Assembly (NCBI RefSeq): GCF_003334335.1
Contig: NZ_QOWQ01000022.1
Source of the DNA: Escherichia coli
GTDB taxonomy: Bacteria; Pseudomonadota; Gammaproteobacteria; Enterobacterales; Enterobacteriaceae
DNA length: 64,000 nt
Direction: 5' to 3' (one strand)
Position numbers and translations under genes: made by a program. Position 1 is the first letter of the stretch. Every line of letters starts with the position of its first letter. Below the pieces are notes generated by a model that saw only the letters and a list, made by a program, of their open reading frames with translations, was not told the DNA's origin and ran no database searches. Of the stretch, positions 9,887 to 52,119 are shown piece after piece.

Positions 9887-9917
9887 AAACGTCGGCACAT
9901 TGTCGGCGTTTTTTTTC
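9887..9917 (+). terminator. putative intrinsic terminator after aroA
   Basis: imperfect hairpin AACGUCGGCAC...GUCGGCGUU followed by eight T. Confidence 0.5.
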
Positions 9918-10014
9918 GGACCTTGTGAGTCATTTTGATTAATGGTAGCGTCGCTTGTCAATGTAAGTTGTTGATACATAATATTTATATATGATTAATC
10001 AACGGATGATTCAC

Positions 10015-10779
10015 ATGAAGAATACTAAATTACTGCTGGCGATTGCGACCTCTGCAGCATTACTGACAGGGTGTCAAAATACCCACGGTATTGATACCAA
10101 TATGGCTATCAGCTCCGGTTTAAATGCCTATAAAGCAGCAACATTAAGCGATGCCGATGCAAAAGCGATTGCCAATCAGGGCTGTGCCGAAATGGACAGC
10201 GGCAATCAAGTCGCAAGTAAATCCAGCAAGTACGGTAAACGTCTGGCAAAAATCGCCAAAGCATTGGGTAACAATATTAATGGCACGCCGGTCAACTATA
10301 AGGTTTATATGACCAGCGACGTCAACGCATGGGCGATGGCGAACGGCTGTGTTCGTGTCTACAGTGGCCTGATGGACATGATGAATGACAACGAAATTGA
10401 AGGCGTTCTGGGCCATGAACTGGGCCACGTCGCGTTGGGTCACTCGCTGGCTGAAATGAAAGCTTCTTATGCGATCGTTGCCGCACGCGATGCCATTTCA
10501 GCTACCAGCGGTGTGGCTTCCCAGCTTTCCCGCTCACAATTAGGTGATATCGCAGAAGGCGCTATCAATGCTAAATACTCCCGTGATAAAGAGTCCGAAG
10601 CAGATGATTTCTCCTTTGATCTGTTGAAGAAACGTGGCATCAGCACCCAGGGGCTGGTTGGCAGCTTTGAAAAACTGGCTAGCCTGGATGGCGGTCGCAC
10701 CCAGTCCATGTTTGACTCTCACCCACCATCAACAGAGCGTGCGCAACACATCCGTGATCGTATCGCCTCTGGTAAGTAA
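10015..10779 (+). CDS. ycaL: M48-family metalloprotease lipoprotein (HExxH: GHELGHVALGH), 254 aa
   Basis: ORF 9991..10779(+) trimmed to MKNTKLLLAIA; lipobox LTGC; HELGH zinc motif. Confidence 0.85.
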   Translation: MKNTKLLLAIATSAALLTGCQNTHGIDTNMAISSGLNAYKAATLSDADAKAIANQGCAEMDSGNQVASKSSKYGKRLAKIAKALGNNINGTPVNYKVYMTSDVNAWAMANGCVRVYSGLMDMMNDNEIEGVLGHELGHVALGHSLAEMKASYAIVAARDAISATSGVASQLSRSQLGDIAEGAINAKYSRDKESEADDFSFDLLKKRGISTQGLVGSFEKLASLDGGRTQSMFDSHPPSTERAQHIRDRIASGK

Positions 10780-16371: not shown

Positions 16372-18120
16372 ATGCATAACGACAAAGATCTCTCTACGTG
16401 GCAGACATTCCGCCGACTGTGGCCAACCATTGCGCCTTTCAAAGCGGGTCTGATCGTGGCGGGCGTAGCGTTAATCCTCAACGCAGCCAGCGATACCTTC
16501 ATGTTATCGCTCCTTAAGCCACTTCTTGATGATGGCTTTGGTAAAACAGATCGCTCCGTGCTGGTGTGGATGCCGCTGGTGGTGATCGGGCTGATGATTT
16601 TACGTGGTATCACCAGCTATGTCTCCAGCTACTGTATCTCCTGGGTATCAGGAAAGGTGGTAATGACCATGCGTCGCCGCCTGTTTGGTCACATGATGGG
16701 AATGCCAGTTTCATTCTTTGACAAACAGTCAACGGGTACGCTGTTGTCACGTATTACCTACGATTCCGAACAGGTTGCTTCTTCTTCTTCCGGCGCACTG
16801 ATTACTGTTGTGCGTGAAGGTGCGTCGATCATCGGCCTGTTCATCATGATGTTCTATTACAGTTGGCAACTGTCGATCATTTTGATTGTGCTGGCACCGA
16901 TTGTTTCGATTGCGATTCGCGTTGTATCGAAGCGTTTTCGCAACATCAGTAAAAACATGCAGAACACCATGGGGCAGGTGACCACCAGCGCAGAACAAAT
17001 GCTGAAGGGCCACAAAGAAGTATTGATTTTCGGTGGTCAGGAAGTGGAAACGAAACGCTTTGATAAAGTCAGCAACCGAATGCGTCTTCAGGGGATGAAA
17101 ATGGTTTCAGCCTCTTCCATCTCTGATCCGATCATTCAGCTGATCGCCTCTTTGGCGCTGGCGTTTGTTCTGTATGCGGCGAGCTTCCCAAGTGTCATGG
17201 ATAGCCTGACTGCCGGTACGATTACCGTTGTTTTCTCTTCAATGATTGCACTGATGCGTCCGCTGAAATCGCTGACCAACGTTAACGCCCAGTTCCAGCG
17301 CGGTATGGCGGCTTGTCAGACGCTGTTTACCATTCTGGACAGTGAGCAGGAGAAAGATGAAGGTAAGCGCGTGATCGAGCGTGCGACTGGCGACGTGGAA
17401 TTCCGCAATGTCACCTTTACTTATCCGGGACGTGACGTACCTGCATTGCGTAACATCAACCTGAAAATTCCGGCAGGGAAGACGGTTGCTCTGGTTGGAC
17501 GCTCTGGTTCGGGTAAATCAACCATCGCCAGCCTGATCACGCGTTTTTACGATATTGATGAAGGCGAAATCCTGATGGATGGTCACGATCTGCGCGAGTA
17601 TACCCTGGCGTCGTTACGTAACCAGGTTGCTCTGGTGTCGCAGAATGTCCATCTGTTTAACGATACGGTTGCTAACAACATTGCTTACGCACGGACTGAA
17701 CAGTACAGCCGTGAGCAAATTGAAGAAGCGGCGCGTATGGCCTACGCCATGGACTTCATCAATAAGATGGATAACGGTCTCGATACAGTGATTGGTGAAA
17801 ACGGCGTGCTGCTCTCTGGCGGTCAGCGTCAGCGTATTGCTATCGCTCGAGCCTTGTTGCGTGATAGCCCGATTCTGATTCTGGACGAAGCTACCTCGGC
17901 TCTGGATACCGAATCCGAACGTGCGATTCAGGCGGCACTGGATGAGTTGCAGAAAAACCGTACCTCTCTGGTGATTGCCCACCGCTTGTCTACCATTGAA
18001 AAGGCAGACGAAATCGTGGTCGTCGAGGATGGTGTCATTGTGGAACGCGGTACGCATAACGATTTGCTTGAGCACCGCGGCGTTTACGCGCAACTTCACA
18101 AAATGCAGTTTGGCCAATGA
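16372..18120 (+). CDS. msbA: lipid A flippase, ABC transporter, 582 aa
   Basis: ORF 16372..18120(+); Walker [10 protein letters not shown], signature LSGGQRQR. Confidence 0.97.
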
Positions 18121-20423: not shown

Positions 20424-21349
<926 letters not shown>

Positions 21350-21502: not shown

Positions 21503-22396
21503 ATGGAACAGCTGCGTGCCGAATTAAGCCATTTACTGGGCGAAAAACTCAGTCGTATTGAGTGCGTCAATGAAAAAGCGGATACGGCGTTGTGGGCTTT
21601 GTATGACAGCCAGGGAAACCCAATGCCGTTAATGGCAAGAAGCTTTAGTACGCCCGGAAAAGCCCGACAACTGGCATGGAAAACCACCATGCTGGCAAGA
21701 AGTGGGACTGTCCGTATGCCGACTATTTATGGTGTGATGACGCATGAAGAACACCCCGGCCCCGATGTCCTGCTACTGGAGCGGATGCGTGGTGTTTCGG
21801 TGGAGGCACCAGCCCGAACACCAGAACGCTGGGAACAACTCAAAGACCAAATCGTTGAAGCCTTACTGGCCTGGCACCGTCAGGACAGTCGCGGTTGCGT
21901 CGGCGCGGTCGACAATACTCAGGAAAATTTCTGGCCCTCATGGTACCGGCAACATGTTGAAGTGCTATGGACCACGCTCAATCAGTTCAATAACACCGGT
22001 CTGACGATGCAGGATAAGCGGATCCTGTTTCGCACTCGCGAATGTCTCCCGGCATTATTTGAAGGCTTTAACGACAATTGTGTGCTGATTCACGGTAACT
22101 TCTGTTTACGCAGCATGTTGAAAGATTCGCGCAGCGATCAGTTACTGGCGATGGTCGGGCCGGGACTAATGCTTTGGGCACCGCGAGAATACGAACTGTT
22201 CCGACTAATGGATAATTCTCTGGCGGAAGATTTGCTCTGGAGTTACCTGCAACGCGCGCCAGTGGCGGAGTCGTTCATCTGGCGGCGTTGGTTGTATGTG
22301 TTATGGGATGAAGTTGCGCAACTGGTTAATACCGGACGATTTAGTCGGCGCAACTTCGATCTGGCATCAAAATCACTCTTGCCGTGGCTCGCCTGA
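21503..22396 (+). CDS. ycbJ: uncharacterised kinase-like protein, 297 aa
   Basis: ORF 21503..22396(+); synteny kdsB-ycbJ-elyC. Confidence 0.8.
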   Translation: MEQLRAELSHLLGEKLSRIECVNEKADTALWALYDSQGNPMPLMARSFSTPGKARQLAWKTTMLARSGTVRMPTIYGVMTHEEHPGPDVLLLERMRGVSVEAPARTPERWEQLKDQIVEALLAWHRQDSRGCVGAVDNTQENFWPSWYRQHVEVLWTTLNQFNNTGLTMQDKRILFRTRECLPALFEGFNDNCVLIHGNFCLRSMLKDSRSDQLLAMVGPGLMLWAPREYELFRLMDNSLAEDLLWSYLQRAPVAESFIWRRWLYVLWDEVAQLVNTGRFSRRNFDLASKSLLPWLA

Positions 22397-23152
22397 CGAA
22401 CCTTTTAGCCACTGCCAGATACGGCCAAGCGTTTCATAGCCAACACGATCGCTATGCATCAACCAGACCGGAGAAGGGATTGCCCGTTCCCACGGGTTAA
22501 GCGGCGAGTCGATGGCCAACTGATTCGCCGGGGCTGGTAGCGGATTTAACCCTTCCTGCTGAAAAAAGATCATCGCCCGCGGCAGATGTGATGCGGAGGT
22601 CACCAGCAGGAAAGGGGCGTCACCAATCGCCTGTTTCACTGCTGCAGCTTCTTCTTCGGTATCTTTTGGCAAATCCAGGGTGATAATTTGCTCGCGCGGC
22701 ACGCCCAGCGATTGCGCAACTCTGGCACCTACTTCCGCTGTACTCACCGTATTGGTTTTTGCTACGCCTCCCGTGAAGATCAGTTTTGATCCCGGATTTT
22801 CGCGCCATAAGCGAATACCTTCATTCAGGCGTGGCAGACTGTTATTGATTAAATTAGAGCTCGGTGCCCACTGCGGGTTCCAGGTATAACCACCTCCGAG
22901 CACCACGATATAGTCCACTTTTTGCGAATTATTCCATGTCGGATAGGTGCTTTCGATGGGACGCAGCAGGCGGTCGGCTACCGGTTGCAAACTCAATAAC
23001 AAGAGCGCCAGCCACCCAATGCTAATAAAAATCTTCCCGGTTTTTTGAAAACGGCTAAACCACAGCAGCGCCAGGCCAGCGCCAATAATCAACAACATCA
23101 GCGGAAGTGGCAGCAACATATTGCCAATCACTTTTTTCAGTGTAAAAAGCAT
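22373..23152 (-). CDS. elyC: envelope biogenesis factor, DUF218 domain, 259 aa
   Basis: ORF 22373..23152(-); N-terminal TM helix; convergent overlap with ycbJ 3' end. Confidence 0.88.
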   Translation of the reverse strand: MLFTLKKVIGNMLLPLPLMLLIIGAGLALLWFSRFQKTGKIFISIGWLALLLLSLQPVADRLLRPIESTYPTWNNSQKVDYIVVLGGGYTWNPQWAPSSNLINNSLPRLNEGIRLWRENPGSKLIFTGGVAKTNTVSTAEVGARVAQSLGVPREQIITLDLPKDTEEEAAAVKQAIGDAPFLLVTSASHLPRAMIFFQQEGLNPLPAPANQLAIDSPLNPWERAIPSPVWLMHSDRVGYETLGRIWQWLKGSSGEPRQE

Positions 23153-23287
23153 CCTTTCTGGTTCCTTTTTTAACCATATAGCAAGGGATCGCCAGCGATA
23201 TTACACCAGACGGGTTCATTCTCGCCGTGGCTGTGACAAAATAGCGTCTTTATCAGAAAACGTCTTAGCCAACCGGTGGAGAAAGCA

Positions 23288-24073
23288 ATGCAGGATCGCA
23301 ATTTTGATGATATTGCGGAAAAGTTTTCCCGTAACATTTACGGCACCACCAAAGGGCAGCTTCGACAGGCTATTCTGTGGCAGGATCTCGATCGCGTGCT
23401 GGCGGAAATGGGCCCGCAAAAACTGCGTGTGCTGGATGCTGGCGGTGGAGAAGGGCAGACCGCAATCAAAATGGCCGAGCGTGGGCATCAGGTCATTTTA
23501 TGCGATCTTTCTGCGCAGATGATCGACCGCGCAAAACAGGCGGCAGAAGCAAAAGGTGTGAGCGACAACATGCAATTTATACATTGCGCCGCTCAGGATG
23601 TTGCTTCGCATTTGGAAACGCCCGTTGATCTGATATTGTTCCATGCGGTGCTCGAGTGGGTGGCTGATCCCCGCAGCGTATTGCAGACCCTGTGGTCAGT
23701 GTTGCGTCCAGGCGGCGTGTTGTCGTTAATGTTCTACAATGCGCATGGTTTGTTGATGCATAACATGGTCGCCGGGAATTTTGATTACGTGCAGGCGGGA
23801 ATGCCGAAAAAGAAAAAACGGACGCTTTCGCCAGATTATCCACGCGACCCGGCGCAGGTTTATCTGTGGCTGGAAGAAGCTGGTTGGCAAATTATGGGTA
23901 AGACAGGCGTTCGCGTGTTTCATGATTATCTGCGCGAGAAACACCAGCAGCGCGACTGCTATGAAGCATTACTTGAATTAGAAACGCGTTATTGCCGTCA
24001 GGAACCGTATATTACCCTGGGGCGTTATATTCATGTCACCGCGCGCAAACCGCAGAGCAAGGATAAAGTATGA
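23288..24073 (+). CDS. cmoM: SAM-dependent tRNA methyltransferase (former smtA), 261 aa
   Basis: ORF 23276..24073(+) trimmed to [16 protein letters not shown] motif LDAGGGEG; stop overlaps mukF start. Confidence 0.88.
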
Positions 24074-25392
24074 GTGAATTTTCCCAGACAGTCCCCGAAC
24101 TGGTTGCCTGGGCCAGAAAAAATGACTTCTCCATCTCGCTGCCGGTAGACCGACTCTCTTTTCTGCTGGCGGTTGCCACGCTGAACGGCGAGCGTCTGGA
24201 TGGTGAGATGAGTGAAGGCGAGCTGGTGGATGCATTCCGCCATGTGAGTGATGCGTTTGAGCAAACCAGCGAAACCATCGGCGTGCGCGCCAATAACGCG
24301 ATCAACGACATGGTGCGTCAACGTCTGCTGAACCGCTTTACCAGCGAGCAGGCGGAAGGGAACGCAATTTACCGTCTGACGCCGCTCGGCATCGGCATTA
24401 CTGACTACTACATCCGTCAGCGCGAGTTTTCTACGCTGCGTCTTTCTATGCAGTTGTCGATTGTGGCGGGTGAGCTCAAACGCGCAGCAGATGCCGCCGA
24501 AGAGGGCGGTGATGAATTTCACTGGCACCGTAATGTCTATGCGCCACTGAAATATTCGGTAGCAGAAATTTTCGACAGTATCGACCTGACGCAACGTCTG
24601 ATGGACGAACAGCAGCAGCAGGTGAAGGACGATATCGCCCAGTTGCTGAACAAAGACTGGCGGGCGGCGATTTCCAGCTGTGAATTGTTGCTTTCGGAAA
24701 CTTCCGGAACGCTGCGTGAATTGCAGGATACGCTGGAAGCGGCAGGCGACAAATTGCAGGCTAATCTGTTGCGCATTCAGGATGCGACGATGACCCATGA
24801 CGATCTGCATTTCGTCGATCGTCTGGTGTTCGATCTGCAGAGCAAACTCGATCGTATTATCAGTTGGGGCCAGCAATCCATCGACTTGTGGATTGGCTAC
24901 GACCGCCACGTACACAAATTTATTCGTACCGCGATCGATATGGATAAAAACCGCGTCTTTGCTCAGCGGTTACGTCAGTCGGTACAAACCTATTTTGATG
25001 AGCCGTGGGCGCTAACTTATGCCAATGCCGATCGTCTGCTGGATATGCGTGACGAAGAGATGGCACTGCGCGATGAAGAAGTGACTGGGGAACTTCCTGA
25101 GGATCTGGAATACGAAGAGTTTAACGAGATCCGCGAACAGCTGGCGGCGATCATCGAAGAACAACTTGCCGTGTACAAAACCAGACAAGTGCCGCTGGAT
25201 CTTGGTCTGGTGGTACGCGAATATCTGTCACAGTATCCGCGTGCACGTCACTTTGACGTTGCGCGTATTGTTATTGATCAGGCGGTACGTCTTGGCGTAG
25301 CGCAAGCAGATTTCACCGGACTGCCAGCGAAATGGCAGCCGATTAATGATTACGGAGCCAAGGTACAGGCGCATGTCATCGACAAATATTGA
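24070..25392 (+). CDS. mukF: condensin kleisin subunit MukF, 440 aa
   Basis: ORF 24070..25392(+); [20 protein letters not shown]. Confidence 0.96.
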
Positions 25393-26077
25393 ACAAGTGA
25401 TGCCGGTTAAGCTGGCGCAGGCGCTGGCGAATCCGTTATTTCCGGCGCTGGACAGCGCCTTACGTTCAGGACGCCATATTGGCCTCGACGAACTGGATAA
25501 TCATGCATTCCTGATGGATTTTCAGGAATATCTGGAAGAGTTTTACGCGCGTTATAACGTTGAGCTTATTCGCGCACCAGAAGGGTTCTTCTATTTACGC
25601 CCACGTTCCACCACGCTGATCCCTCGTTCCGTCTTGTCGGAACTGGATATGATGGTCGGGAAAATCCTCTGTTATCTCTATCTCAGCCCGGAACGGCTGG
25701 CGAATGAGGGGATTTTCACCCAGCAGGAACTGTACGACGAACTGCTCACCCTGGCCGATGAAGCAAAACTGCTGAAACTGGTGAACAACCGTTCAACCGG
25801 TTCAGACGTTGACCGTCAGAAGTTGCAGGAGAAAGTACGTTCTTCGCTCAACCGTCTGCGTCGTTTAGGCATGGTGTGGTTTATGGGCCACGACAGCAGC
25901 AAGTTTCGCATTACCGAATCGGTGTTCCGCTTCGGAGCCGATGTGCGTGCTGGCGACGATCCCCGTGAAGCACAGCGTCGCCTGATTCGTGATGGCGAAG
26001 CAATGCCGATTGAAAATCATCTGCAACTCAACGATGAAACCGAAGAGAATCAGCCAGATAGCGGAGAGGAAGAATAA
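25373..26077 (+). CDS. mukE: condensin subunit MukE, about 234 aa
   Basis: ORF 25346..26077(+) trimmed to [14 protein letters not shown]; overlaps mukF 3' end; stop shares 1 nt with mukB ATG. Confidence 0.85.
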
Positions 26078-29000
26078 TGATTGAACGCGGTAAATTTCGC
26101 TCACTGACGCTGATTAACTGGAACGGCTTTTTTGCCCGAACTTTTGACCTTGACGAGCTGGTCACGACGCTTTCTGGCGGTAACGGGGCGGGTAAATCCA
26201 CCACCATGGCGGCGTTCGTTACGGCGCTGATCCCCGACCTGACCCTGCTGCATTTCCGTAACACTACGGAAGCCGGGGCCACCAGCGGTTCGCGCGATAA
26301 AGGTCTGCACGGTAAGCTGAAAGCGGGTGTCTGTTATTCGATGCTCGACACCATTAACTCGCGCCACCAGCGCGTGGTGGTCGGTGTGCGTCTGCAACAG
26401 GTTGCCGGACGCGATCGTAAAGTGGATATCAAGCCGTTTGCCATTCAGGGACTGCCGATGTCGGTGCAGCCGACACAGCTGGTGACCGAAACCCTGAACG
26501 AACGCCAGGCGCGCGTGCTGCCGCTTAACGAGCTGAAAGACAAGCTCGAGGCGATGGAAGGCGTGCAGTTTAAACAGTTCAACTCCATTACTGATTACCA
26601 CTCGCTGATGTTCGATCTGGGCATCATCGCGCGTCGTCTGCGCTCCGCATCTGACCGTAGCAAATTCTATCGTCTGATCGAAGCTTCGCTGTATGGCGGG
26701 ATCTCCAGTGCCATTACCCGTTCTCTGCGCGACTACCTGTTGCCAGAAAACAGCGGCGTGCGTAAAGCGTTCCAGGACATGGAAGCGGCGCTGCGTGAAA
26801 ACCGTATGACGCTGGAAGCGATTCGTGTCACCCAGTCGGACCGCGACCTGTTTAAGCATCTGATCAGCGAAGCCACCAACTACGTGGCGGCGGACTACAT
26901 GCGTCACGCCAACGAGCGCCGTGTCCATCTCGACAAAGCCCTGGAGTTTCGTCGCGAGCTACATACTTCGCGTCAGCAACTGGCGGCTGAGCAGTACAAA
27001 CACGTCGATATGGCGCGTGAGCTGGCAGAGCACAACGGTGCCGAAGGCGATCTGGAAGCGGATTATCAGGCGGCCAGTGATCACCTGAACCTGGTGCAAA
27101 CCGCACTGCGTCAGCAGGAGAAGATCGAACGCTACGAAGCGGATCTCGATGAGCTGCAGATCCGTCTGGAAGAGCAAAATGAAGTGGTGGCAGAAGCCAT
27201 CGAACGCCAGGAAGAGAATGAGGCTCGTGCGGAAGCTGCCGAACTGGAAGTGGACGAGCTGAAAAGCCAGCTTGCTGACTACCAGCAGGCGCTGGACGTC
27301 CAGCAAACGCGCGCGATCCAGTATAACCAGGCGATTGCTGCGCTTAATCGTGCCAAAGAACTGTGCCATCTGCCGGACTTAACCGCCGACTGCGCCGCCG
27401 AATGGCTGGAAACCTTCCAGGCGAAAGAGCTGGAAGCGACTGAAAAAATGCTCTCTCTTGAGCAGAAAATGAGCATGGCGCAAACCGCGCACAGCCAGTT
27501 TGAGCAGGCTTATCAGCTGGTGGTGGCAATCAACGGCCCACTGGCGCGTAACGAGGCGTGGGATGTCGCTCGCGAACTATTGCGCGAAGGGGTCGATCAG
27601 CGTCACCTGGCAGAGCAGGTTCAGCCGCTGCGGATGCGATTAAGCGAACTGGAACAGCGTCTACGCGAGCAGCAAGAAGCTGAGCGTCTGCTGGCAGATT
27701 TCTGCAAACGTCAGGGCAAGAATTTTGATATCGACGAACTGGAAGCCCTGCATCAGGAACTGGAAGCACGCATTGCCTCTCTTTCCGATAGCGTGTCTAA
27801 CGCCCGTGAAGAGCGCATGGCACTGCGCCAGGAGCAGGAACAGCTGCAGTCTCGCATTCAGAGTTTGATGCAGCGTGCGCCGGTTTGGCTGGCAGCGCAA
27901 AACAGTCTCAACCAGTTGAGCGAACAGTGCGGCGAAGAGTTTACCTCCAGCCAGGACGTCACCGAATATCTGCAACAGTTGCTGGAGCGTGAGCGAGAGG
28001 CGATTGTTGAACGCGATGAAGTGGGCGCGCGCAAAAACGCCGTCGATGAAGAGATCGAACGTTTAAGCCAGCCTGGCGGCTCTGAAGATCAGCGTCTGAA
28101 CGCGCTGGCGGAGCGTTTTGGTGGTGTGCTGCTGTCAGAAATTTATGACGACGTTAGCCTGGAAGATGCGCCGTACTTCTCAGCGCTGTATGGCCCGTCA
28201 CGCCACGCCATCGTGGTGCCAGATCTGTCACAGGTAACTGAACACCTGGAAGGCTTGACCGATTGCCCGGAAGATCTCTATCTGATCGAAGGAGATCCGC
28301 AGTCATTCGATGACAGCGTGTTCAGCGTTGATGAGCTGGAAAAAGCGGTAGTGGTGAAAATCGCCGATCGTCAGTGGCGTTATTCACGTTTCCCGGAAGT
28401 GCCGCTGTTTGGTCGTGCTGCGCGTGAAAGCCGTATTGAAAGCCTCCATGCCGAGCGTGAAGTGCTTTCCGAACGCTTCGCCACGCTCTCCTTTGATGTA
28501 CAGAAAACTCAGCGTCTGCATCAGGCGTTCAGCCGCTTTATCGGCAGTCATCTGGCGGTTGCGTTTGAGTCTGACCCGGAAGCAGAAATCCGTCAACTGA
28601 ACAGCCGTCGCGTCGAACTGGAGCGGGCGTTAAGTAATCATGAAAATGATAACCAGCAGCAGCGTATTCAGTTTGAGCAGGCGAAAGAGGGCGTTACGGC
28701 GCTGAACCGCATTCTGCCGCGTCTCAACCTGTTGGCTGATGACAGCCTGGCGGATCGCGTCGATGAAATCCGCGAACGTCTGGATGAAGCCCAGGAAGCC
28801 GCGCGTTTTGTTCAGCAGTTTGGCAATCAACTGGCGAAACTGGAACCGATTGTTTCGGTATTGCAGAGCGACCCGGAACAGTTCGAACAGTTAAAAGAAG
28901 ATTACGCGTACTCTCAGCAGATGCAGCGCGATGCCCGTCAGCAGGCGTTTGCCCTGACGGAAGTGGTGCAGCGTCGTGCGCACTTTAGCTATTCTGACTC

Positions 29001-30537
29001 GGCAGAAATGCTTAGCGGTAACAGCGATCTCAACGAAAAACTGCGTGAACGTCTGGAACAGGCGGAAGCGGAGCGTACCCGCGCTCGCGAAGCGTTGCGC
29101 GGTCACGCAGCGCAGTTGAGTCAGTACAACCAGGTGCTGGCTTCGCTGAAAAGTTCTTACGACACCAAAAAAGAGCTACTCAACGATCTGCAACGTGAAT
29201 TGCAGGATATCGGCGTGCGTGCTGATAGCGGGGCAGAAGAGCGGGCGCGTATTCGCCGTGACGAGCTGCATGCGCAACTGAGCAATAACCGTTCACGCCG
29301 CAATCAACTGGAAAAAGCGCTTACCTTCTGCGAAGCGGAGATGGACAACCTGACCCGCAAACTGCGCAAGCTGGAGCGGGATTACTTTGAGATGCGCGAG
29401 CAGGTAGTGACCGCCAAAGCGGGCTGGTGTGCGGTGATGCGCATGGTGAAAGATAACGGCGTTGAGCGCCGCTTACACCGTCGTGAGCTGGCTTATCTCT
29501 CCGCTGATGATTTGCGTTCCATGTCGGATAAGGCGTTAGGTGCGCTGCGTCTGGCGGTGGCGGATAACGAACATCTGCGCGACGTGCTGCGCATGTCGGA
29601 AGATCCGAAACGTCCGGAGCGTAAAATTCAGTTCTTCGTGGCGGTTTATCAGCATCTGCGTGAACGTATTCGTCAGGATATTATTCGTACCGATGATCCG
29701 GTGGAAGCTATCGAACAGATGGAGATTGAACTTAGCCGTCTGACCGAAGAATTAACCTCCCGTGAACAGAAACTGGCGATCAGTTCCCGCAGCGTGGCGA
29801 ACATCATTCGCAAAACCATTCAGCGCGAGCAGAACCGTATCCGTATGCTCAACCAGGGGTTGCAGAACGTATCGTTTGGTCAGGTGAACAGCGTGCGTCT
29901 CAACGTGAACGTGCGTGAAACGCACGCCATGCTACTGGATGTGCTCTCTGAACAGCACGAGCAGCATCAGGATCTGTTTAACAGCAACCGTTTGACCTTC
30001 TCGGAAGCGCTGGCGAAACTGTATCAACGTCTTAACCCGCAGATTGATATGGGGCAGCGCACGCCGCAGACCATCGGTGAAGAACTGCTGGATTACCGCA
30101 ACTATCTGGAAATGGAAGTTGAGGTTAACCGTGGTTCCGATGGCTGGCTGCGCGCAGAGTCTGGTGCATTGTCGACCGGTGAGGCGATTGGTACCGGTAT
30201 GTCGATTCTGGTGATGGTGGTACAAAGCTGGGAAGATGAATCTCGCCGCCTGCGCGGTAAAGATATCTCTCCTTGCCGCCTGCTGTTCCTCGATGAAGCA
30301 GCGCGACTGGATGCTCGTTCTATCGCCACGCTGTTTGAATTGTGTGAGCGTTTGCAAATGCAACTCATCATCGCAGCGCCGGAAAATATCAGCCCGGAGA
30401 AAGGCACCACCTATAAACTGGTGCGTAAAGTCTTCCAGAATACCGAACACGTTCATGTCGTCGGCCTGCGAGGATTTGCGCCGCAACTCCCTGAAACGCT
30501 TCCAGGAACTGACGAAGCGCCTTCTCAGGCGAGTTAA
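26077..30537 (+). CDS. mukB: SMC-like condensin ATPase MukB, 1486 aa
   Basis: ORF 26077..30537(+); N-terminal Walker [10 protein letters not shown]; long coiled-coil; C-terminal LLFLDEA. Confidence 0.98.
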
Positions 30538-30542
30538 AATTA

Positions 30543-30570
30543 AGGCGGCAGCAATGCCGCCTTTTCTTTT
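30543..30570 (+). terminator. intrinsic terminator after mukB
   Basis: GGCGGCA-GCAA-TGCCGCC followed by TTTTCTTTTT. Confidence 0.7.
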
Positions 30571-30797
30571 TCCGAAAACTCCGTTTCTGCACTAAAAAAG
30601 TGGCACATTACGGCGCGCTTTTCTTTAAACTTCTTTACATTAGGTTATGTAAAAACGTATCGGCGTTTATATACTGAAGATAAGCCTGATGAGTAACAGG
30701 CTTGCTCGTCATACTTTCGTGAGTATTGGCGTTGTACAGGCAAGTCGTAAAATAACAGCCTGGCTATTCAGAGTATGATAAAAACAGGGGGCAAGGG

Positions 30798-32645
30798 ATG
30801 TTGCTTAATATGATGTGTGGTCGTCGGCTGTCGGCAATCAGTTTGTGCCTGGCCGTAACATTCGCTCCACTGTTCAATGCGCAGGCCGATGAGCCTGAAG
30901 TAATCCCTGGCGACAGCCCGGTGGCTGTCAGTGAACAGGGCGAGGCACTGCCGCAGGCGCAAGCCACGGCAATAATGGCGGGGATCCAGCCATTGCCTGA
31001 AGGTGCGGCAGAAAAAGCCCGCACGCAAATCGAATCTCAATTACCCGCAGGTTACAAGCCGGTTTATCTTAACCAGCTTCAACTGTTGTATGCCGCACGC
31101 GATATGCAACCCATGTGGGAAAACCGTGATGCTGTTAAAGCCTTCCAGCAACAGCTGGCAGAGGTGGCGATTGCCGGTTTCCAGCCGCAGTTTAATAAAT
31201 GGGTAGAGTTACTGACCGATCCTGGTGTTAACGGGATGGCACGCGACGTGGTGCTCTCTGATGCGATGATGGGCTATCTCCATTTCATTGCAAATATTCC
31301 GGTCAAAGGCACTCGCTGGCTATATAGCAGTAAACCTTATGCACTTGCAACGCCGCCGCTCTCGGTGATTAACCAATGGCAGCTGGCGCTGGATAAAGGT
31401 CAATTGCCTACGTTTGTTGCAGGACTGGCACCGCAGCATCCGCAATATGCGGCGATGCATGAATCGTTACTGGCCTTACTCTGTGACACCAAACCGTGGC
31501 CCCAACTGACCGGCAAAGCAACGTTGCGCCCAGGGCAGTGGAGTAACGACGTACCGGCGTTGCGCGAAATATTGCAACGCACAGGCATGTTGGACGGGGG
31601 GCCGAAAATTACTCTACCTGGCGATGACACGCCAACTGACGCGGTAGTCAGCCCATCCGCTGTTACTGTTGAAACAGCAGAAACTAAGCCGATGGATAAG
31701 CAAACGACGTCTCGTAGTAAACCTGCGCCTGCCGTTCGCGCCGCCTACGATAATGAACTGGTGGAAGCCGTTAAACGTTTTCAGGCATGGCAAGGATTGG
31801 GGGCAGATGGTGCTATTGGCCCGGCAACACGTGACTGGTTAAACGTAACGCCCGCCCAGCGTGCTGGCGTGTTGGCTCTCAACATCCAGCGATTGCGCTT
31901 GCTGCCAACAGAGCTTTCTACCGGGATCATGGTTAACATTCCGGCCTATTCGCTGGTCTACTATCAGAACGGCAATCAGGTGCTGGATTCGCGAGTCATT
32001 GTCGGTCGCCCCGATCGCAAAACGCCGATGATGAGCAGTGCCCTTAACAACGTAGTGGTAAACCCGCCGTGGAACGTACCTCCAACTCTGGCACGCAAAG
32101 ATATTCTGCCAAAAGTGCGCAACGATCCGGGATATCTCGAAAGCCATGGCTATACGGTGATGCGCGGCTGGAACAGCAGAGAAGCGATTGACCCATGGCA
32201 GGTTGACTGGTCTACAATCACGGCCTCGAATTTACCGTTCCGCTTCCAGCAGGCTCCAGGCCCACGGAACTCGCTGGGGCGCTATAAATTCAATATGCCG
32301 AGTTCAGAGGCCATTTATTTGCATGACACGCCGAACCACAATCTGTTCAAGCGTGATACACGCGCATTGAGCTCAGGCTGTGTACGAGTGAATAAAGCTT
32401 CCGATCTGGCGAATATGCTGTTGCAGGATGCAGGCTGGAATGACAAACGTATTTCTGATGCGCTGAAGCAGGGTGATACACGTTACGTCAATATTCGGCA
32501 GTCGATTCCGGTGAATCTCTACTACCTGACGGCCTTTGTTGGTGCAGATGGTCGTACCCAGTATCGTACAGATATTTACAATTATGATCTGCCTGCGCGA
32601 TCCAGCTCGCAAATCGTATCGAAAGCGGAACAATTAATCAGGTAA
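30798..32645 (+). CDS. ldtD: L,D-transpeptidase (YkuD domain), 615 aa
   Basis: ORF 30798..32645(+); signal peptide; catalytic region HDTPNHNLF...SSGCVRV. Confidence 0.93.
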
Positions 32646-36960: not shown

Positions 36961-37293
36961 ACACCGTCATATTTCCATAGAGACGTGATGATATTTACAG
37001 CAATTTTAATCTATTTATATGATTTCCTTATATTTAAATTAACTAAACGGAAATTTTGTTTCTGATGGAAACTTTATCGACCTGGCACAAAATCTTCTTT
37101 CAGACATCCAGAATGCCAAAAAATAGTATGAAAATTGTGCTATTAGCTAAGAAAAAACTAATCCGCAATAAGAATGCGGATTAGTTTTTGCGCGTAAATG
37201 TTGCAATGTAATATTCCGTAACAGGATGATCGTTATGGCGGGGTTGCAAATAGATTGCTTGACTTAACAAACAGATAACTTGACAGAAAAGAT

Positions 37294-37321
37294 AAAAAAA
37301 GAGCCAGCGGGCGCTGGCTCT
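37294..37321 (-). terminator. intrinsic terminator after asnS
   Basis: minus-strand hairpin GAGCCAGCG-CCC-GCTGGCTC followed by TTTTTTT. Confidence 0.7.
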
Positions 37322-37334
37322 TGAAGACGCTAAA

Positions 37335-38735
37335 TTAGAAGCTGGCGTTACGCGGAGTACGTGGGAACGGAATCACATCACGTACGTTTTGCACGCCAGT
37401 TACGTAAGCAATCAGACGTTCAAAACCAAGACCGAAACCTGAATGCGGAACAGTACCGTAGCGACGCAGATCGCGATACCACCAGTAATCTTCTTTATTC
37501 AGGCCCATTTCCAGCATACGCTCGTCCAGCACGTCCAGACGTTCTTCACGCTGGGAGCCACCAATGATCTCACCGATGCCCGGAGCCAGAACGTCCATAG
37601 CCGCAACGGTTTTACCGTCTTCGTTAAGGCGCATATAGAACGCTTTAATATCTTTCGGATAGTTTTTAACCACTACCGGTGCTTTAAAGTGTTCTTCCGC
37701 CAGATAACGCTCATGCTCAGAAGAGAGATCGACTCCCCAGTAAACCGGGTTTTCAAACTTCCTGCCGCAGTTTTCGAGAATGGTCACTGCGTCGGTATAA
37801 TCCACCTGCGCAAAATCGGCTTCAATGAAGCGTTCCAGACGTGAAACGGCATCTTTATCTACGCGTTCAGCGAAGAATTTCATGTCGTCAGCGCGTTCTT
37901 CGAGAACCGCTTTGAAGACATATTTCAGCATGGCTTCAGCCAGACCCGCAATATCGTTCAGGTTAGCAAACGCCACTTCCGGCTCCAGCATCCAGAATTC
38001 CGCCAGGTGACGGCTGGTGTTGGAGTTTTCAGCACGGAAAGTCGGGCCGAAGGTATAAATTTTGGACAATGCGCAAGCGTAGGTTTCGCCGTTCAACTGG
38101 CCAGATACGGTCAGGAAAGACTCTTTACCAAAGAAGTCTTTGTCGAAATCCACTTTGCCCTGATCGTTACGCGGCAGGTTTTCCAGATCCAGCGTAGAAA
38201 CGCGGAACATTTCGCCTGCACCTTCGGTATCAGATGCGGTAATCAGTGGCGTTGAAACCCAGAAGAATCCCTGCTCGTTAAAGAAGCGATGCAGCGCCTG
38301 CGCCAGCGTATGGCGAACGCGCGCGACGGCACCAATCAGGTTTGTGCGCGGACGCAGGTGAGCGACTTCACGCAGATACTCAATGCTGTGGCGTTTTGCC
38401 GCCATCGGGTAAGTGTCTGGATCTTCAACCCAACCAGCAACTTCAACCTTGCTGGCCTGAATTTCAAATTGTTGCCCCTGGCCCGGCGACGCCACGACTT
38501 TACCCGTCACAATGACCGAGCAGCCGGTGGTCAGACGCAGGACGTCTTCATTGTAATTGGGCAGAGAATTATTGATGACAGCCTGTACAGGATCAAAGCA
38601 GGAACCGTCATAAACGGCGAGGAAGGAGATGCCAGCTTTTGAATCTCGGCGGGTACGTACCCATCCGCGCACGGTGACTTCGCTGTCAACGGCTACACGG
38701 CCCTGGAGTACGTCGGCTACAGGCACAACGCTCAT
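37335..38735 (-). CDS. asnS: asparaginyl-tRNA synthetase, 466 aa
   Basis: ORF 37335..38780(-) trimmed to [14 protein letters not shown]. Confidence 0.95.
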
Positions 38736-43026: not shown

Positions 43027-43794
43027 TTACCCCTGTTTTCTCAGGCGAGTTTCAGATTCACCACGTTGCATCACCCGTTGCAACACCTCCGCTTCCAGCT
43101 CCGCTAATCGCACCGACCCTAATCGACGCGGACGGGGGATATCCACTGTCAAATCCAGACCAATTTTTCCCTCTTCAATTAACAGCACCCGGTCAGCCAT
43201 CGCTACCGCTTCGCTCACATCATGCGTCACCAACAGTACGGTAAAGCCGTGCTCCTGCCAAAGTGACACAATCAAATCCTGCATCTCGAGTCGCGTTAAG
43301 GCGTCCAGCGCCCCGAGCGGTTCATCAAGCAACAATAATCCCGGTCGATGAATCAACGCTCTTGCCAGCGCCACTCGCTGTTTCTGCCCGCCAGAAAGTG
43401 CGGCAGGCCATTCCCCTGCGCGATTCTCCAGTCCTACCGCAGCCAACGCTCGACGTGCGGCATCGCGCCACTGGCCTTTAAGGCCTAACCCAACGTTATC
43501 AATCACCGATTTCCACGGTAGCAGACGCGCATCCTGAAACATCATTCGCGTGTCTTCCTGAATTTCAGCCAGCGGTGTGGTGCCCGCTAACACATCGCCT
43601 GCGGTTGGCGTTTCCAGACCTGCCAGCAGGCGCAGCAGGGTACTTTTGCCACCACCGCTGCGGCCCACCACCGCCACAAACTGACCTGCCGGAATATGTA
43701 AATCCAGTTGGTTCAGGACGATATTTTCCGCGTAATGTTTGCTTACTGCATTGAGCAACAATGGCGTGCCCTGGTTCAGACGAGCAGTATTCAT
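43027..43794 (-). CDS. ssuB: aliphatic sulfonate ABC transporter ATPase, 255 aa
   Basis: ORF 43027..43794(-); Walker [10 protein letters not shown]. Confidence 0.95.
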
Positions 43795-44582
43795 ACCGTG
43801 GCCTCCTTCAAATGATAAGCCGGGTTCCAGCGCAACCAGAGGCGCTCTAACAGCTGCGCGCTGACGTCAGCCAGTTTGCCGAGCAGGGCGTAAAGAATAA
43901 TAGCGACTACCACCACGTCCGTTTGCAAAAACTCCCGCGCATTCATCGCCAGATAACCAATGCCTGAATTGGCAGAAATGGTTTCGGCAACAATCAGCGT
44001 CAGCCACATCAGGCCCAACGCAAAACGCACGCCGACCATAATTGAGGGCAGGGCACCAGGCAGGATCACATGGATAAACAGCGGTATGCCGGATAATCCA
44101 TAGCTACGCGCCATCTCCACCAACCCGCGATCGATATTACGGATGCCATGCCAGGTGTTGATATAAATGGGGAATAGCGTACCGAGCGCCACCAGAAAGA
44201 TTTTTGCGGATTCATCAATGCCAAACCACAAAATCACCAGCGGGATCAGCGCCAGATGCGGCACGTTGCGCAACATCTGAATTGAGGTATCCAGCAGCCG
44301 TTCTCCCCAGCGAGATAGCCCGCTAATCAGTCCCAAAATCAACCCCAGCGATCCGCCAATTGAAAAGCCAATCAGCGCCCGCCAGGAGCTGATCGCCAGA
44401 TGCTGCCACAGTTCGCCGCTGGCGGAGAGCGTCCAGAACGCCGTCACCACTCCTTCCGGTGAAGGCAAAATACGCGTCGACAGCCAGCCAACCGAGGAGG
44501 CCAGTTGCCACACCGCCACGATGCCCACCGGTAAAAACCAGGGGGCAACGCGCAATAACCACTTCTTCACTGGCGTTGCCAT
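43791..44582 (-). CDS. ssuC: aliphatic sulfonate ABC transporter permease, 263 aa
   Basis: ORF 43791..44627(-) trimmed to [15 protein letters not shown]; 4-nt overlap with ssuB. Confidence 0.9.
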
Positions 44583-44592
44583 TATTTCTTCC

Positions 44593-45738
44593 TTAGCTTT
44601 GCGCGACTTTACGGGGGATAAAATCATTCGCCACCGCTTCGCCTTGCGGATTCAGCGGCTGCGGCTGGGGAATTTCCGGGATGGCGACATCCAGAAGCGG
44701 GAACAGCAACTCGCCAACCCGATACGCTTCTTCCAGATGCGGATAGCCCGAAAGCACAAAACTGTCGATGCCAAGCGCGGCATATTCGTTGATTCGCGCA
44801 GCGACCGTAGGACCATCGCCCACCAGCGCCGTCCCGGCACCGCCGCGCACTAAGCCAACGCCCGCCCATAAATTGGGGCTGATCTCCAGATTGTCGCGCT
44901 TGCCGTTATGTAACGCCGCCATTCGCTGTTGCCCTACGGAATCCGTCCGGGCGAATGCGGCCTGTGCTTTGGCGATAGTTTCATCATCAAGATGCGAGAT
45001 TAACCGCTCGGCGGCCTGCCACGCTTCGTCGTTAGTTTCACGAACAATCACATGCAGACGAATACCGAAACGAATTTTGCGTCCATGCGCGGCAGCTTTC
45101 GCCCGCACTTGTTCGATTTTCTCTTTAACCAGTTCCGGCGGTTCGCCCCAGGTGAGGTAGAGATCAACCTGTTCTGCCGCCAGCTCCTGGGCGACATCTG
45201 ACGATCCGCCAAAGTAAAGTGGCGGATACGGCTGTTGAATCGCCGGGAAGAGCAGTTTTGCTCCGCGCACATGAATATGTTTACCGTTGAAATCGACGGT
45301 TTCTCTCTGCAATAAACGCCGCCAGACCTGGGTAAATTCCGCCGAGGCTTCGTAGCGCTCGCTATGATCAAGGAACACTCCGTCGCCTGCCAGCTCTTGT
45401 GGATCGCTGCCTGTGACCAGGTTAAACAACGCACGTCCATTTGAGAGACGGTCAAGCGTGGCGGCCTGGCGGGCGGCAACGGTAGGTGAGGTTACGCTGG
45501 GACGCAGGGCGACAAGAAACTTCAGCCGCTGCGTCACCGGGATCATCGATGCGGCAACCAGCCACGCATCTTCGCAGGAGCGCCCCGTTGGAATTAGCAC
45601 ACCGGTATAGCCAAGACGATCCGCCGCTTGCGCAATTTGTTGCAGATAACCGTGATCAACCGGGCGTGAACCTTCTTCCGTTCCCAGATAATGCCCGTCA
45701 CCGTGGGTCGGTAAAAACCAGAACATATTCAGACTCAT
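44593..45738 (-). CDS. ssuD: FMNH2-dependent alkanesulfonate monooxygenase, 381 aa
   Basis: ORF 44593..45738(-); [19 protein letters not shown]. Confidence 0.96.
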
Positions 45739-46694
45739 AATTGTTTTCCTTCCAGTTGAGTGGGCTGCCAGATGCGCTGGCGAATATCGACTTTTTTCGG
45801 CACCAGACGATTTTCATAAAACAGATCTGCCGTTTGCTGCTGTAAGGCGGCAACCTCGGCGTTAACCGGTTTGATGGTGGTAGGAGGGCGATGATCTAAG
45901 TAAGAGGCAATCACCGGTGCCGGTAAGCCCATCGTTTTTGCCAGTAAAGCGATGCTTTGCTCGCGCTGGCTGCGGGTTAACGCATCGGCCTCACTAAAGG
46001 TTGCCAGTACGCCCTGAATAAAAGCGCCGTTTTTTTCTGCATAGGGACGAGCTGCCAGATAAAACGATCCAGTTTGATTGAGATCGGTGCCGTCTTTCAG
46101 CACCCGCACGCCGCCCTGTAATAATGCAGCAGAGTAGTAGGGATCCCAGATAGCCCAGGCGTCAACGTTACCTTGCTGGAACGCGGCGCGGGCATCAGCG
46201 GGCGTCAGGTAAGTGGGTTGGATATCGGTAAACTTAAGTCCGGCCTGACGCAGTGCACGCAGTAAAAGGTTGTGTGAACTGGAACCTTTCTGAAAGGCAA
46301 CTTTGTGACCTTTAAGATCGGCTACGGTTTTGATCGGGCTGTTTTCTGCCACCAGAATCACTTCGGCTTTGGGCTTCGGTGGCTCGACGCCCACGTACAC
46401 CAAATCAGCCCCGGCAGCCTGGGCAAAGATTGGCGGAATATCCCCGGTACTGCCGAGATCAATACTGCCAACGTTTAACGCTTCCAACATTTGCGGACCC
46501 GCGGGGAACTCCACCCAGGAGATTTTTGATTCCGGATAGCGTTTTTCCAGTAACTGGTGGCTTTTTGCCAGCACCATACCAATACTGCCTTTCTGATAGC
46601 CTATACGTAACGCTTCAGGCGAGGATTCTGCAGCAACCGCAAAAGTAGAGACGCTAAGCAATCCCGCCAGCGCCAGTTTAATGATGTTACGCAT
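45735..46694 (-). CDS. ssuA: aliphatic sulfonate periplasmic binding protein, 319 aa
   Basis: ORF 45735..46736(-) trimmed to [14 protein letters not shown]; overlaps ssuE stop. Confidence 0.9.
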
Positions 46695-47262
46695 GGGCAT
46701 TACCTCGCAGAGACAGAAGGTCAGGAACCTGAACATCGCGGCGGTGCAATGCCTGCCAGAAAGTTTCTAGCGCGGTATCAAGACGGGTTTGCAGATTTGG
46801 CGTGAACTGGGGTCTGTGATGGTAATCAATTACTTGTGAGTCATCGGCAAACACGCCGTGCAGGATCTCCTGAGCTTTCAGTGCGCTTAAAACTGGTTTA
46901 AGGGCATAATCGACCGCCAGCAGATGGGCCACGGTACCGCCCGTCGCCAGCGGTAGCACCACTTTGCCTTGCAAAGCGCGTTCTGGCAGCAGGTCGAGCA
47001 GGGTTTTCAACGCACCGGAATAGGCGGCTTTATACACAGGCGTGGCGACAATCAGCCCATCGGCCTGTTGCAGCTGTTCGGTGAAGGTCTTGAGTGCCGG
47101 ACTATCGAAACGAGCATAAAGTAGATCTTCCGGGGCGAAGTTTTGCAGATTCCAGTGATAAACCTCTACATCCAGGCCATTTAGTTTTTCCCGCGCATAT
47201 TCCAGCAAGGAGCTGGAGCGAGAAGGAAAGCGAGGACTACCCGCCAGGGTGATGACACGCAT
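46687..47262 (-). CDS. ssuE: NADPH-dependent FMN reductase, 191 aa
   Basis: ORF 46687..47262(-); first gene of the ssuEADCB operon. Confidence 0.95.
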   Translation of the reverse strand: MRVITLAGSPRFPSRSSSLLEYAREKLNGLDVEVYHWNLQNFAPEDLLYARFDSPALKTFTEQLQQADGLIVATPVYKAAYSGALKTLLDLLPERALQGKVVLPLATGGTVAHLLAVDYALKPVLSALKAQEILHGVFADDSQVIDYHHRPQFTPNLQTRLDTALETFWQALHRRDVQVPDLLSLRGNAHA

Positions 47263-47617
47263 ACTCTCTCCTTATAACCAATTGTTCTTTTTTTGTTAAC
47301 ATTGATAACAATTCGGTCAGTCTGTCGGAGAGACAAGAAAATTCCAAATATAAATTTTGTGTATCTTTTTCTGAAAATAAACTAAAGAAAGGGCTTTATA
47401 TATCACGCATATTTATTTATTGGATAGTCATTAGATGTTGAATCAATGAATTACTCGTTCAGTTAATATTTAAATATTCATGAAATCTATAAATTAAAGA
47501 TTTGTCACTTATTGGATTTAGTATGCTTGATTTAAATGGCGGACAATTATTGTTATTATTAAGTCTAATGTCATTTAAAGGCATTATCATATTTACGAAG
47601 AGATCAGGATGATAACG
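47263..47617. promoter_or_regulatory. AT-rich divergent control region between ssuE and elfA
   Basis: 355 bp of strongly AT-rich sequence between divergent operons. Confidence 0.5.
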
Positions 47618-48157: not shown

Positions 48158-48239
48158 TAGAACTCATTAATTGTTTTATTAATTAGTACCCCTCCAGTGT
48201 TCTGGAGGGGATATTCATATTTTTTAAGAGTGACTATTT

Positions 48240-48941: not shown

Positions 48942-48965
48942 TTCGTCTTCAGTTAAGAGAGCGAG

Positions 48966-52119
<3,154 letters not shown>

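Follow-up and report, generated by a model that had tools for sequence, protein, structure and literature searches.

Positions 23288 to 30537 of a 64,000-nucleotide (nt) stretch of an Escherichia coli genome (assembly GCF_003334335.1, contig NZ_QOWQ01000022.1; the whole stretch is referred to as the window) carry the genes cmoM, mukF, mukE, and mukB on the plus strand. They very probably represent the classical smtA(cmoM)-mukF-mukE-mukB operon of E. coli, with closely packed stop and start codons and with MukE produced mainly from the ATG at position 25373. Publications on the operon date back to 1995-96, and it is therefore already known; in this respect our finding restates the facts of a textbook operon and changes nothing. 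New here are comparative data on the gene junctions from about 85 related loci, support for the mukE start, and a candidate element inside cmoM. The residual novelty lies in this element and in the question of one versus two MukE N termini.

Gene coordinates were taken from the RefSeq annotation of an identical strain and converted to window positions. Specifically, cmoM (formerly smtA; 23288-24073) codes for a tRNA cmo5U34 methyltransferase of 261 amino acids (aa), mukF (24070-25392) for the 440-aa kleisin subunit of MukBEF, mukE (25373-26077) for a protein of 234 aa at its annotated start, and mukB (26077-30537) for the 1486-aa SMC-like ATPase subunit. All four proteins exceeded the cutoffs of NCBIfam equivalog families over their full length, i.e., CmoM that of NF008264 (504 bits versus a cutoff of 366; residues 1 to 261 of 261), MukF that of NF003615 (845 versus 407; residues 1 to 440 of 440), the MukE encoded directly downstream of mukF that of NF003602 (412 versus 250), and the MukB encoded directly downstream of mukE that of NF003422 (2647 versus 699). 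Relatives of MukF carried the Pfam domains WHD_KicB, MukF_M, and MukF_C, and the MukE protein is identical to chain C of PDB entry 3EUH. An annotation made earlier from the DNA sequence alone (the original prediction) had proposed the same four gene names and, exact to the base, the same coordinates. The start of cmoM at ATG 23288 is preceded by GGAG at a distance of 6 nt (free energy of pairing, dG, -6.4), and the GTG at 23276, with which the longer open reading frame (ORF) begins, is without a Shine-Dalgarno sequence. Several complete E. coli chromosomes were 100% identical to window positions 23000 to 30800, and a match was obtained in each of the complete E. coli genomes searched (5426/5426). 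Strain MG1655 has the same layout (b0920 to b0924, with cmoM to mukB corresponding to b0921 to b0924), its MukE protein being NP_415443.2.

As cited in PMC4255302, PMC4737166, and PMC9239193, the operon was described by Yamanaka et al. in 1995/1996. It is given as smtA-mukF-mukE-mukB of E. coli in a review (PMC4255302) and in PMC3871593, and SmtA was renamed CmoM after its identification as a tRNA methyltransferase forming the methyl ester of cmo5U34 (PMC4737166). The co-transcription of the four genes has its basis in this literature: besides the review (PMC4255302), the E. coli operon has been handled as a single long transcript that is degraded during ongoing transcription (PMC4332155), and for Dickeya the known operon was shown with long native RNA reads (PMC9239193). 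In other studies, the "smtA promoter" was replaced or blocked to control MukBEF (PMC7163298, PMC4738335), and an entry for Vibrio fischeri lists a predicted smtA-mukFEB operon (PMC3948606). The organization of a methyltransferase gene together with condensin genes, which had been pointed out in the original prediction, is thus real and old, and the linkage is present in Enterobacterales and Vibrio cholerae.

The gene identities, coordinates, overlaps, Shine-Dalgarno-like sequences, and conservation come from the present analysis. At the cmoM/mukF junction (24059-24077, plus strand), which reads GTATGAGT at 24068-24075, the TGA of cmoM (24071-24073) overlaps the ATG of mukF (24070-24072) within the motif ATGA (24070-24073). 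The Shine-Dalgarno sequence AAGGA is located at 24059-24063, and the sequence AAGGATAAagtATGAGTGA at this junction provides stop codons in all three frames. The mukF/mukE junction (GCGCATGTCATCGACAAATATTGA) is arranged differently, with the ATG of mukE (25373) located 20 nt inside mukF, which ends with the TGA at 25390-25392. At the mukE/mukB junction (GAATAATGATT; 26063-26079, plus strand), the Shine-Dalgarno sequence GGAGAGGAAG (26063-26072) is followed by TAATG, in which the TAA of mukE (26075-26077) shares its last A with the ATG of mukB (26077-26079). All three arrangements had been proposed from the sequence before and were confirmed by reading the respective positions.

A lone ATGA overlap is not unusual. 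Among 40 codirectional neighbor pairs of this stretch, evaluated in a near-identical strain, overlaps of 4 nt occurred in five pairs, of 1 nt in one pair, and of other lengths in four pairs. The original prediction had listed further ATGA overlaps, all of which are present, namely at msbA/lpxK (18117-18120), ycaR/kdsB (20603-20606), ssuC/ssuB (43791-43794, minus strand), and ssuA/ssuD (45735-45738, minus strand); only the order given as ssuD/ssuA did not stand, since transcription proceeds from ssuA to ssuD. The pair ssuE/ssuA shows an 8-nt overlap. What goes beyond chance in the cmoM-mukFEB region is conservation, i.e., each stop lies close to the following start in all but a few of the 79 Enterobacteriaceae species compared, and the 20-nt overlap of mukF and mukE is invariant.

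The comparison was based on a genome scan anchored on MukF, which yielded 80 loci, each from a different species, ranging from Escherichia to Serratia and thus at the level of Enterobacteriaceae only; cmoM, mukF, mukE, and mukB were placed in each locus by tblastn, and more distant loci were found by exact-protein look-ups. In 79 of the 80 loci cmoM was located upstream of mukF, the remaining locus being cut at a contig end, and the spacing was tight in 78 of these 79. The distance from cmoM to mukF was -8 nt in 36 species, +3 nt in 31, -4 nt (the E. coli type) in 11, and +105 nt in 1, and that from mukE to mukB was -1 nt in 55 species, -4 nt in 17, and -8 nt in 5. With respect to the MukE core, the mukF stop did not shift in 77 of the 79 species. 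Overall, the upstream stop was found at most 8 nt from the next start in all but two to three of the 79 species. The surroundings of the mukF start (AAGGATAAnnnATGAGTGA) contain stops in all three frames, and therefore the variable C terminus of CmoM always ends a few bases from the ATG. The +105 value stems from a Serratia metagenome-assembled genome (L082), and an apparent frameshift around mukF/mukE/mukB was seen in a Kluyvera locus (L028); both outliers are probably assembly errors or local indels.

Outside this set, the 20-nt mukF/mukE overlap was present in Yersinia, Hafnia, and Brenneria, together with a 4-nt cmoM/mukF overlap, in Erwiniaceae, together with an 8-nt overlap, and in V. 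cholerae and in a locus whose MukF is 50% identical (L085), with cmoM/mukF gaps of 11 and 36 nt, respectively. A divergent gene for a DUF218 (ElyC-like) protein lay upstream of cmoM in all six (6/6) of these groups. As judged from this distribution, the linkage to cmoM and the 20-nt overlap are old features of the Enterobacterales-Vibrio group.

As a side observation on the same gene, synonymous variation was also suppressed at the 5' end of mukF, with a fraction of minor synonymous codons of 0.06 over the first approximately 15 codons (codons 2 to 15, 24073-24115) and 0 of 2000 permutations as low. This suppression extends well past the 4 to 8 nt shared with cmoM. Shuffled controls were predicted to be more structured than this region (z = +1.6), which points to selection keeping the mukF start open. 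Another observation concerns protein clustering: the 90%-identity cluster of V. cholerae MukF (P0121) also holds 260-aa CmoM proteins, and a 551-aa protein (P0007) is 100% identical to E. coli MukF across 93% of the length of MukF. The mixed cluster and the 551-aa protein suggest fused or miscalled cmoM-mukF ORFs in some assemblies, which bridge both families.

The reading frame of mukE is open from ATG 25346 (243 aa), as had been remarked in the original prediction, and contains two further in-frame ATG codons at 25373 (234 aa) and 25400 (225 aa). The second of these, favored in that prediction, is also the RefSeq start and is supported by the overlap, by frozen synonymous sites, and by the Shine-Dalgarno sequence. 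The putative initiation region in the 3' end of mukF (25348-25392, plus strand) comprises GGAG (25354-25357), AAGG (25360-25363), ATG 25373, and the 20-nt overlap up to the mukF TGA. Predicted pairing with the 3' end of 16S rRNA was -5.8 kcal/mol for 25373, -1.8 for 25346, and -0.2 for 25400, the window background being -2.7 ± 2.3. ATG 25373 and ATG 25400 were each found in 77 of 78 species and ATG 25346 in only 60, as Asn426 of MukF is encoded by AAT in 60 species and by AAC in 15.

Synonymous sites were analyzed by means of the fraction of minor synonymous codons, which was 0.32 when pooled over the four genes, and with 2000 permutations. Across 76 distinct mukF sequences, this fraction was 0.32 gene-wide versus 0.05 in the last 13 degenerate codons, 7 of which are invariant compared to 1.7% of control codons; none of the permutations (0/2000) gave a value as low. 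For codons 427 to 436 it dropped to 0.019 (76 species). Invariant codons were D427 GAT, G429 GGA, A430 GCC, K431 AAG, H435 CAT, V436 GTC, K439 AAA, Y440 TAT, and the TGA stop. The frozen stretch begins approximately 25 nt upstream of ATG 25373 and covers GGAGCCAAGG, ATG 25373 itself, and MukE codons 4 to 7. Its Shine-Dalgarno region reads GAT TAC GGA GCC AAG GTA CAG, in which the lysine is encoded by AAG throughout (70 of 70 species). The mukF codon that provides the AT of the mukE ATG specifies His in enterics, Asn in V. cholerae, and Tyr in L085, and it always ends in AT. The sites synonymous in mukF that could alter MukE residues 4 to 7 (AAA, TAT, TGA) were invariant in 75 of 75 species.

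The protein data are in accordance with these results. An N terminus of the type MSST(N/D)I, together with the 20-nt overlap, occurs in V. cholerae (MSSTDINEYMP), L085 (MSSTNIDFPLP), Yersinia, Hafnia, Erwiniaceae, and Brenneria. In L085, Leu replaces Met10 of E. coli, and therefore the start methionine of the short form is not universally available. The NCBIfam profile of MukE begins at residue 3 to 4 of the 234-aa form, and the MukE chains from Photorhabdus and Haemophilus ducreyi in the PDB begin at the long-form position. Taken together, the comparative points favor a mukE start at 25373 over those at 25346 and 25400. This support matters in practice, as constructs of 234 aa (3EUH, 9GMB) and of 225 aa (3RPU, 7V8P) are both in use for E. 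coli MukE, and also for genome recoding, where projects have left unreadable codons in the essential mukE gene.

In 80 aligned upstream regions, the elyC-cmoM intergenic region showed the conserved blocks GATATTACACCAGA (23197-23210), GGTTCATT (23213-23220), and GGCTGTGACAAAATAGCG (23229-23246), and the approximately 40 nt preceding the cmoM ATG (from about 23250) were variable, with indels. These blocks contain a candidate operon promoter (23215-23242, plus strand) with the -35-like hexamer TTCATT (23215-23220), a 16-nt spacer, TG at 23234-23235, and the -10-like hexamer CAAAAT (23237-23242). It ranked among the best plus-strand σ70-like scores obtained with an ad hoc matrix, and the conserved block would fit a promoter. 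A strict σ70 consensus scan of 22300-31000 gave three matches versus 4.8 expected and none inside the operon, which makes it uninformative, and it reported neither this candidate nor the one within cmoM described below. Just 5 nt past the mukB stop, the terminator scan identified an intrinsic-terminator-like hairpin followed by a T-run (30542-30573, plus strand; AAGGCGGCAGCAATGCCGCCTT), consisting of 9 pairs, 6 of them G-C, with a 4-nt loop and the tail TTCTTTTTCC. This was a strong site, and none of comparable quality was obvious between the four genes. With Rfam at E ≤ 1, the sole match was subthreshold and located on the mukB terminator.

Two further blocks of frozen synonymous sites were located inside cmoM. 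Block A (23552-23590, plus strand; codons 89 to 100; AAAGGTGTGAGC..AACATGCAnTTTnTACAnTGC) had a minor synonymous fraction of approximately 0.05 (codons 88 to 97), the lowest inside cmoM, versus 0.32 pooled, with 0 of 2000 permutations as low. It is conserved in Yersinia, Hafnia, Serratia, and Erwiniaceae, not in V. cholerae, and it contains a small inverted repeat, GCATT/AATGC (GCAAT/ATTGC in E. coli). A hairpin formed by this repeat is weak as a candidate: a mismatch is present in at least 12 species, against a single compensatory pair in the Escherichia group. A CRP site or an antisense promoter in block A gave poor matches by eye, and these candidates were dropped. Predicted RNA folds of the cmoM blocks were not more stable than those of shuffled sequences, and of the regions folded only the mukF/mukE junction was mildly so.

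Block B (23609-23642, plus strand; codons 108 to 118), with a minor synonymous fraction of 0.10 at codons 108 to 117 (11 of 2000 permutations as low), is a candidate internal σ70 promoter by its conservation pattern. It reads CAT TTG GAA nnn CCn GTy GAT CTG ATA TTG TT and can be parsed into a -35 hexamer TTGGAA (23612-23617), a 16-nt spacer, TG (23631-23632), and a -10 hexamer TATTGT (23634-23639), i.e., a promoter of the extended -10 type with a predicted start near 23646. The spacer includes the Dam site GATC at 23627-23630. Leu109 is encoded by TTG or TTA in 78 of 78 species and never by CTG, Leu115 by CTG in 78 of 78, and Ile116 by the rare codon ATA in 75 of 75; Asp114 is encoded by GAT in 77 of 77, preserving GATC, and the spacer codons 111 to 113 are variable. 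In Erwiniaceae and Pantoea, the exchange I116V (ATA to GTA) affects no base of TGnTATTGT other than the free "n." Conservation of block B extends to Yersinia, Hafnia, Serratia, and Brenneria but not to V. cholerae. The block lies in smtA-mukF, a region dense in GATC sites that a published study lists among the stable targets of SeqA, along with pyrD-rlmKL-uup (PMC2912659). In agreement with that report, we counted 7 GATC sites in cmoM and 12 in mukF (23288-25392), approximately 9 per kb versus 4.7 per kb for the window.

According to the preferred reading of a single classical operon, transcription would begin at a promoter between elyC and cmoM and end at the hairpin terminator directly past mukB, yielding one long mRNA that encodes a tRNA wobble-uridine methyltransferase together with the three subunits of the MukBEF condensin. 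Each upstream stop is placed at or inside the next start region (ATGA, 20-nt overlap, TAATG), so that ribosomes ending the upstream gene might keep the next site open or reinitiate there. Each downstream gene has its own Shine-Dalgarno sequence, and therefore ribosomes could also load de novo at mukF, mukE, and mukB. For mukE, translation would start mainly at ATG 25373, giving 234 aa, from an initiation region that is embedded in the last approximately 45 nt of mukF and is near-invariant across Enterobacterales and Vibrio. Both the coupling itself and the position of the promoter are what we infer.

Coupling of cmoM-mukF-mukE-mukB is plausible from these sequences and not exclusive of independent initiation. 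Two reviews (PMC12548453, PMC6728339) treat stop/start overlaps such as ATGA and TAATG as signs of termination-reinitiation coupling, and the stop overlaps or abuts the next start at all three junctions. A weak or hidden downstream ribosome-binding site, a further sign of coupling, was not seen, the Shine-Dalgarno dG values being -5.2 to -6.6 and the sequences conserved. Several results weigh against coupling and would fit a simpler explanation, in which mukF, mukE, and mukB start independently and the overlaps are by-products of genome compaction and of drift of the upstream stop. Each of the three genes has its own conserved Shine-Dalgarno-like sequence at a workable spacing (AAGGA, GGAGCCAAGG, and GGAGAGG, respectively), with pairing energies of -5.2 kcal/mol for mukF, -5.8 for mukE (25373), and -6.6 for mukB, so that independent initiation would be sufficient in principle; AAGGA is located 6 nt upstream of the mukF ATG and is conserved in 79 species, and GGAGG or, as in E. 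coli, GGAGAGG is conserved upstream of mukB among the species surveyed. RNA fold prediction at the three junctions revealed no start-hiding structure: the cmoM/mukF junction had a more open predicted fold than its shuffled controls, as mentioned above, the mukF/mukE junction a mildly more stable one (z = -2.1) that leaves AAGG in a loop, and the mukE/mukB junction an unremarkable one (z = -0.4). The exact motifs ATGA and TAATG are not conserved, conservation being seen instead in the short distance from each stop to the following start; overlap length varies from genus to genus (-8, +3, -4 for cmoM/mukF; -1, -4, -8 for mukE/mukB), V. cholerae and L085 have gaps before mukF, and ATGA overlaps are common among neighbors in the window. 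Our literature search found no experiment on coupling in the cmoM-mukFEB operon. On the other hand, hardly any of the 79 species deviates from the close placement of stop and following start, and the mukF/mukE overlap keeps its length of 20 nt across a broad range of species. This fixed spacing could reflect a benefit of ribosome hand-over and equally a constraint on the embedded initiation region alone. Independent initiation throughout is thus a serious alternative, though we consider it the less probable one.

The remaining alternatives concern the N terminus of MukE and the source of the mukFEB transcript. MukE might be made wholly or partly from ATG 25400, e.g., by reinitiation of a terminating ribosome 8 nt past the mukF TGA, with two N-terminal forms or mainly the short one. 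In favor of this, and against a predominant start at 25373, ATG 25400 is conserved as well as ATG 25373 within Enterobacteriaceae and is present in V. cholerae; the 225-aa protein was the one crystallized for 3RPU and 7V8P, and these entries together with the version number of NP_415443.2 point to a revised start. Furthermore, codons 2 and 3 of the 234-aa frame (25376-25381) are TCA TCG, i.e., the serine codons of which the recoded strain Syn61 was to be freed. Syn61 was reported to retain forbidden codons in the essential mukE gene owing to changed gene coordinates (PMC13287592); if the TCA TCG at 25376-25381 are meant, which is our own conjecture, the viability of a strain unable to read them (Syn61, Syn61-delta-3) hints that a shorter MukE can suffice. 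An entry "mukE 7" in a table of the MazF regulon (PMC5001579), denoting cleavage at an ACA 7 nt from the mukE start, does not discriminate between the two starts, since by cut counting an ACA lies 7 nt away from either one (25393 in 25393-25395 for ATG 25400; C25366 in 25365-25367 for ATG 25373); an N-terminomics supplement checked for the MukE N terminus had no mukE entry. Against the short form stand the lack of a Shine-Dalgarno sequence at 25400, the leucine of L085, the invariance of the sites setting MukE residues 4 to 7, as expected if the extension is translated, and the long-form beginnings of the NCBIfam profile and of the Photorhabdus and H. ducreyi chains. We therefore regard it as quite improbable. 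The other alternative holds that block B (23612-23639) is a second, internal promoter that also transcribes mukFEB, so that condensin expression would be partly uncoupled from cmoM; as a conserved promoter-like block, it may add a second mukFEB transcript, which weighs against a single one. The argument rests on the conservation pattern, since the bare motif is weak (8/12 plus TG): the -35 hexamer and TGnTATTGT are frozen by way of rare codons, the spacer is variable, and the one amino acid exchange falls on the free "n." In addition, block B had the best plus-strand promoter score in 23100-30500, and its GATC lies within the reported SeqA target. However, about four such scores are expected by chance in 7.4 kb, the stricter consensus scan missed it, the element is absent from V. 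cholerae, and supplements of Cappable-seq and SMRT-Cappable-seq studies searched for internal starts gave no match. Moreover, the field takes the smtA promoter as the driver (PMC7163298, PMC4738335), and the constraint might have another origin, such as RNA processing at this site, protein binding, or codon effects on CmoM folding. An active internal promoter is thus doubtful, somewhat less probable than independent initiation. The combined view, in which two frozen cmoM elements are kept by Enterobacterales, the second being promoter-shaped with a Dam GATC, and both ATG 25373 and ATG 25400 are used to give two forms of MukE, is unlikelier still, though not to the degree of the short form by itself. 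If active, block B would give a cmoM-independent mukFEB transcript, its firing might respond to methylation state or SeqA binding, and condensin supply would be linked to replication. As a candidate, the block can be tested for internal promoter activity toward mukFEB and for a possible sensitivity to Dam.

Further observations concern the 3' end of mukF and the rest of the window. A small hairpin (CUGCCA..UGGCAG) is predicted at 25321-25338 and a weak one, presenting AAGG in its loop, at 25348-25380; common variable sites in these are unpaired or wobble-compatible, with little variation overall. The operon is flanked by elyC on the minus strand (22373-23152) and by ldtD, which begins at 30798, both according to the annotation of the identical strain. 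The second SeqA target named above, pyrD-rlmKL-uup, lies within the same 64-kb window. Strain 300709 (NZ_CP025903.1) carries elfC as an annotated pseudogene with a frameshift; compared to this strain, the region from ssu to elf (approximately 43860-51360) is about 507 nt shorter in the window, and one-base offsets occur near 9900-10100 and 37260-37860.

Relative to the known E. coli smtA(cmoM)-mukF-mukE-mukB operon, there is no difference: the DNA is identical (100%), as are gene order and annotated coordinates, and the comparative data on the junctions and the mukE start constitute added detail only. Like classic coupled gene pairs, two of the three junctions are 4-nt and 1-nt overlaps, and all three stops are within reach of the next start. 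The operon differs from such pairs in that a conserved Shine-Dalgarno sequence precedes every downstream gene and that mukF and mukE overlap out of frame over a longer distance (20 nt), the start preceding the stop. Distant MukBEF loci, i.e., that of Psittacicella (L087) and the loci L089, L091, and L093 (MukF at most 47% identical), share the order mukF-mukE-mukB on one strand with short gaps or overlaps. Unlike in E. coli, cmoM is absent upstream, the MukE N termini differ, and the mukF/mukE spacing is +1, +56, +5, or -17 nt, compared to -20 nt in E. coli.

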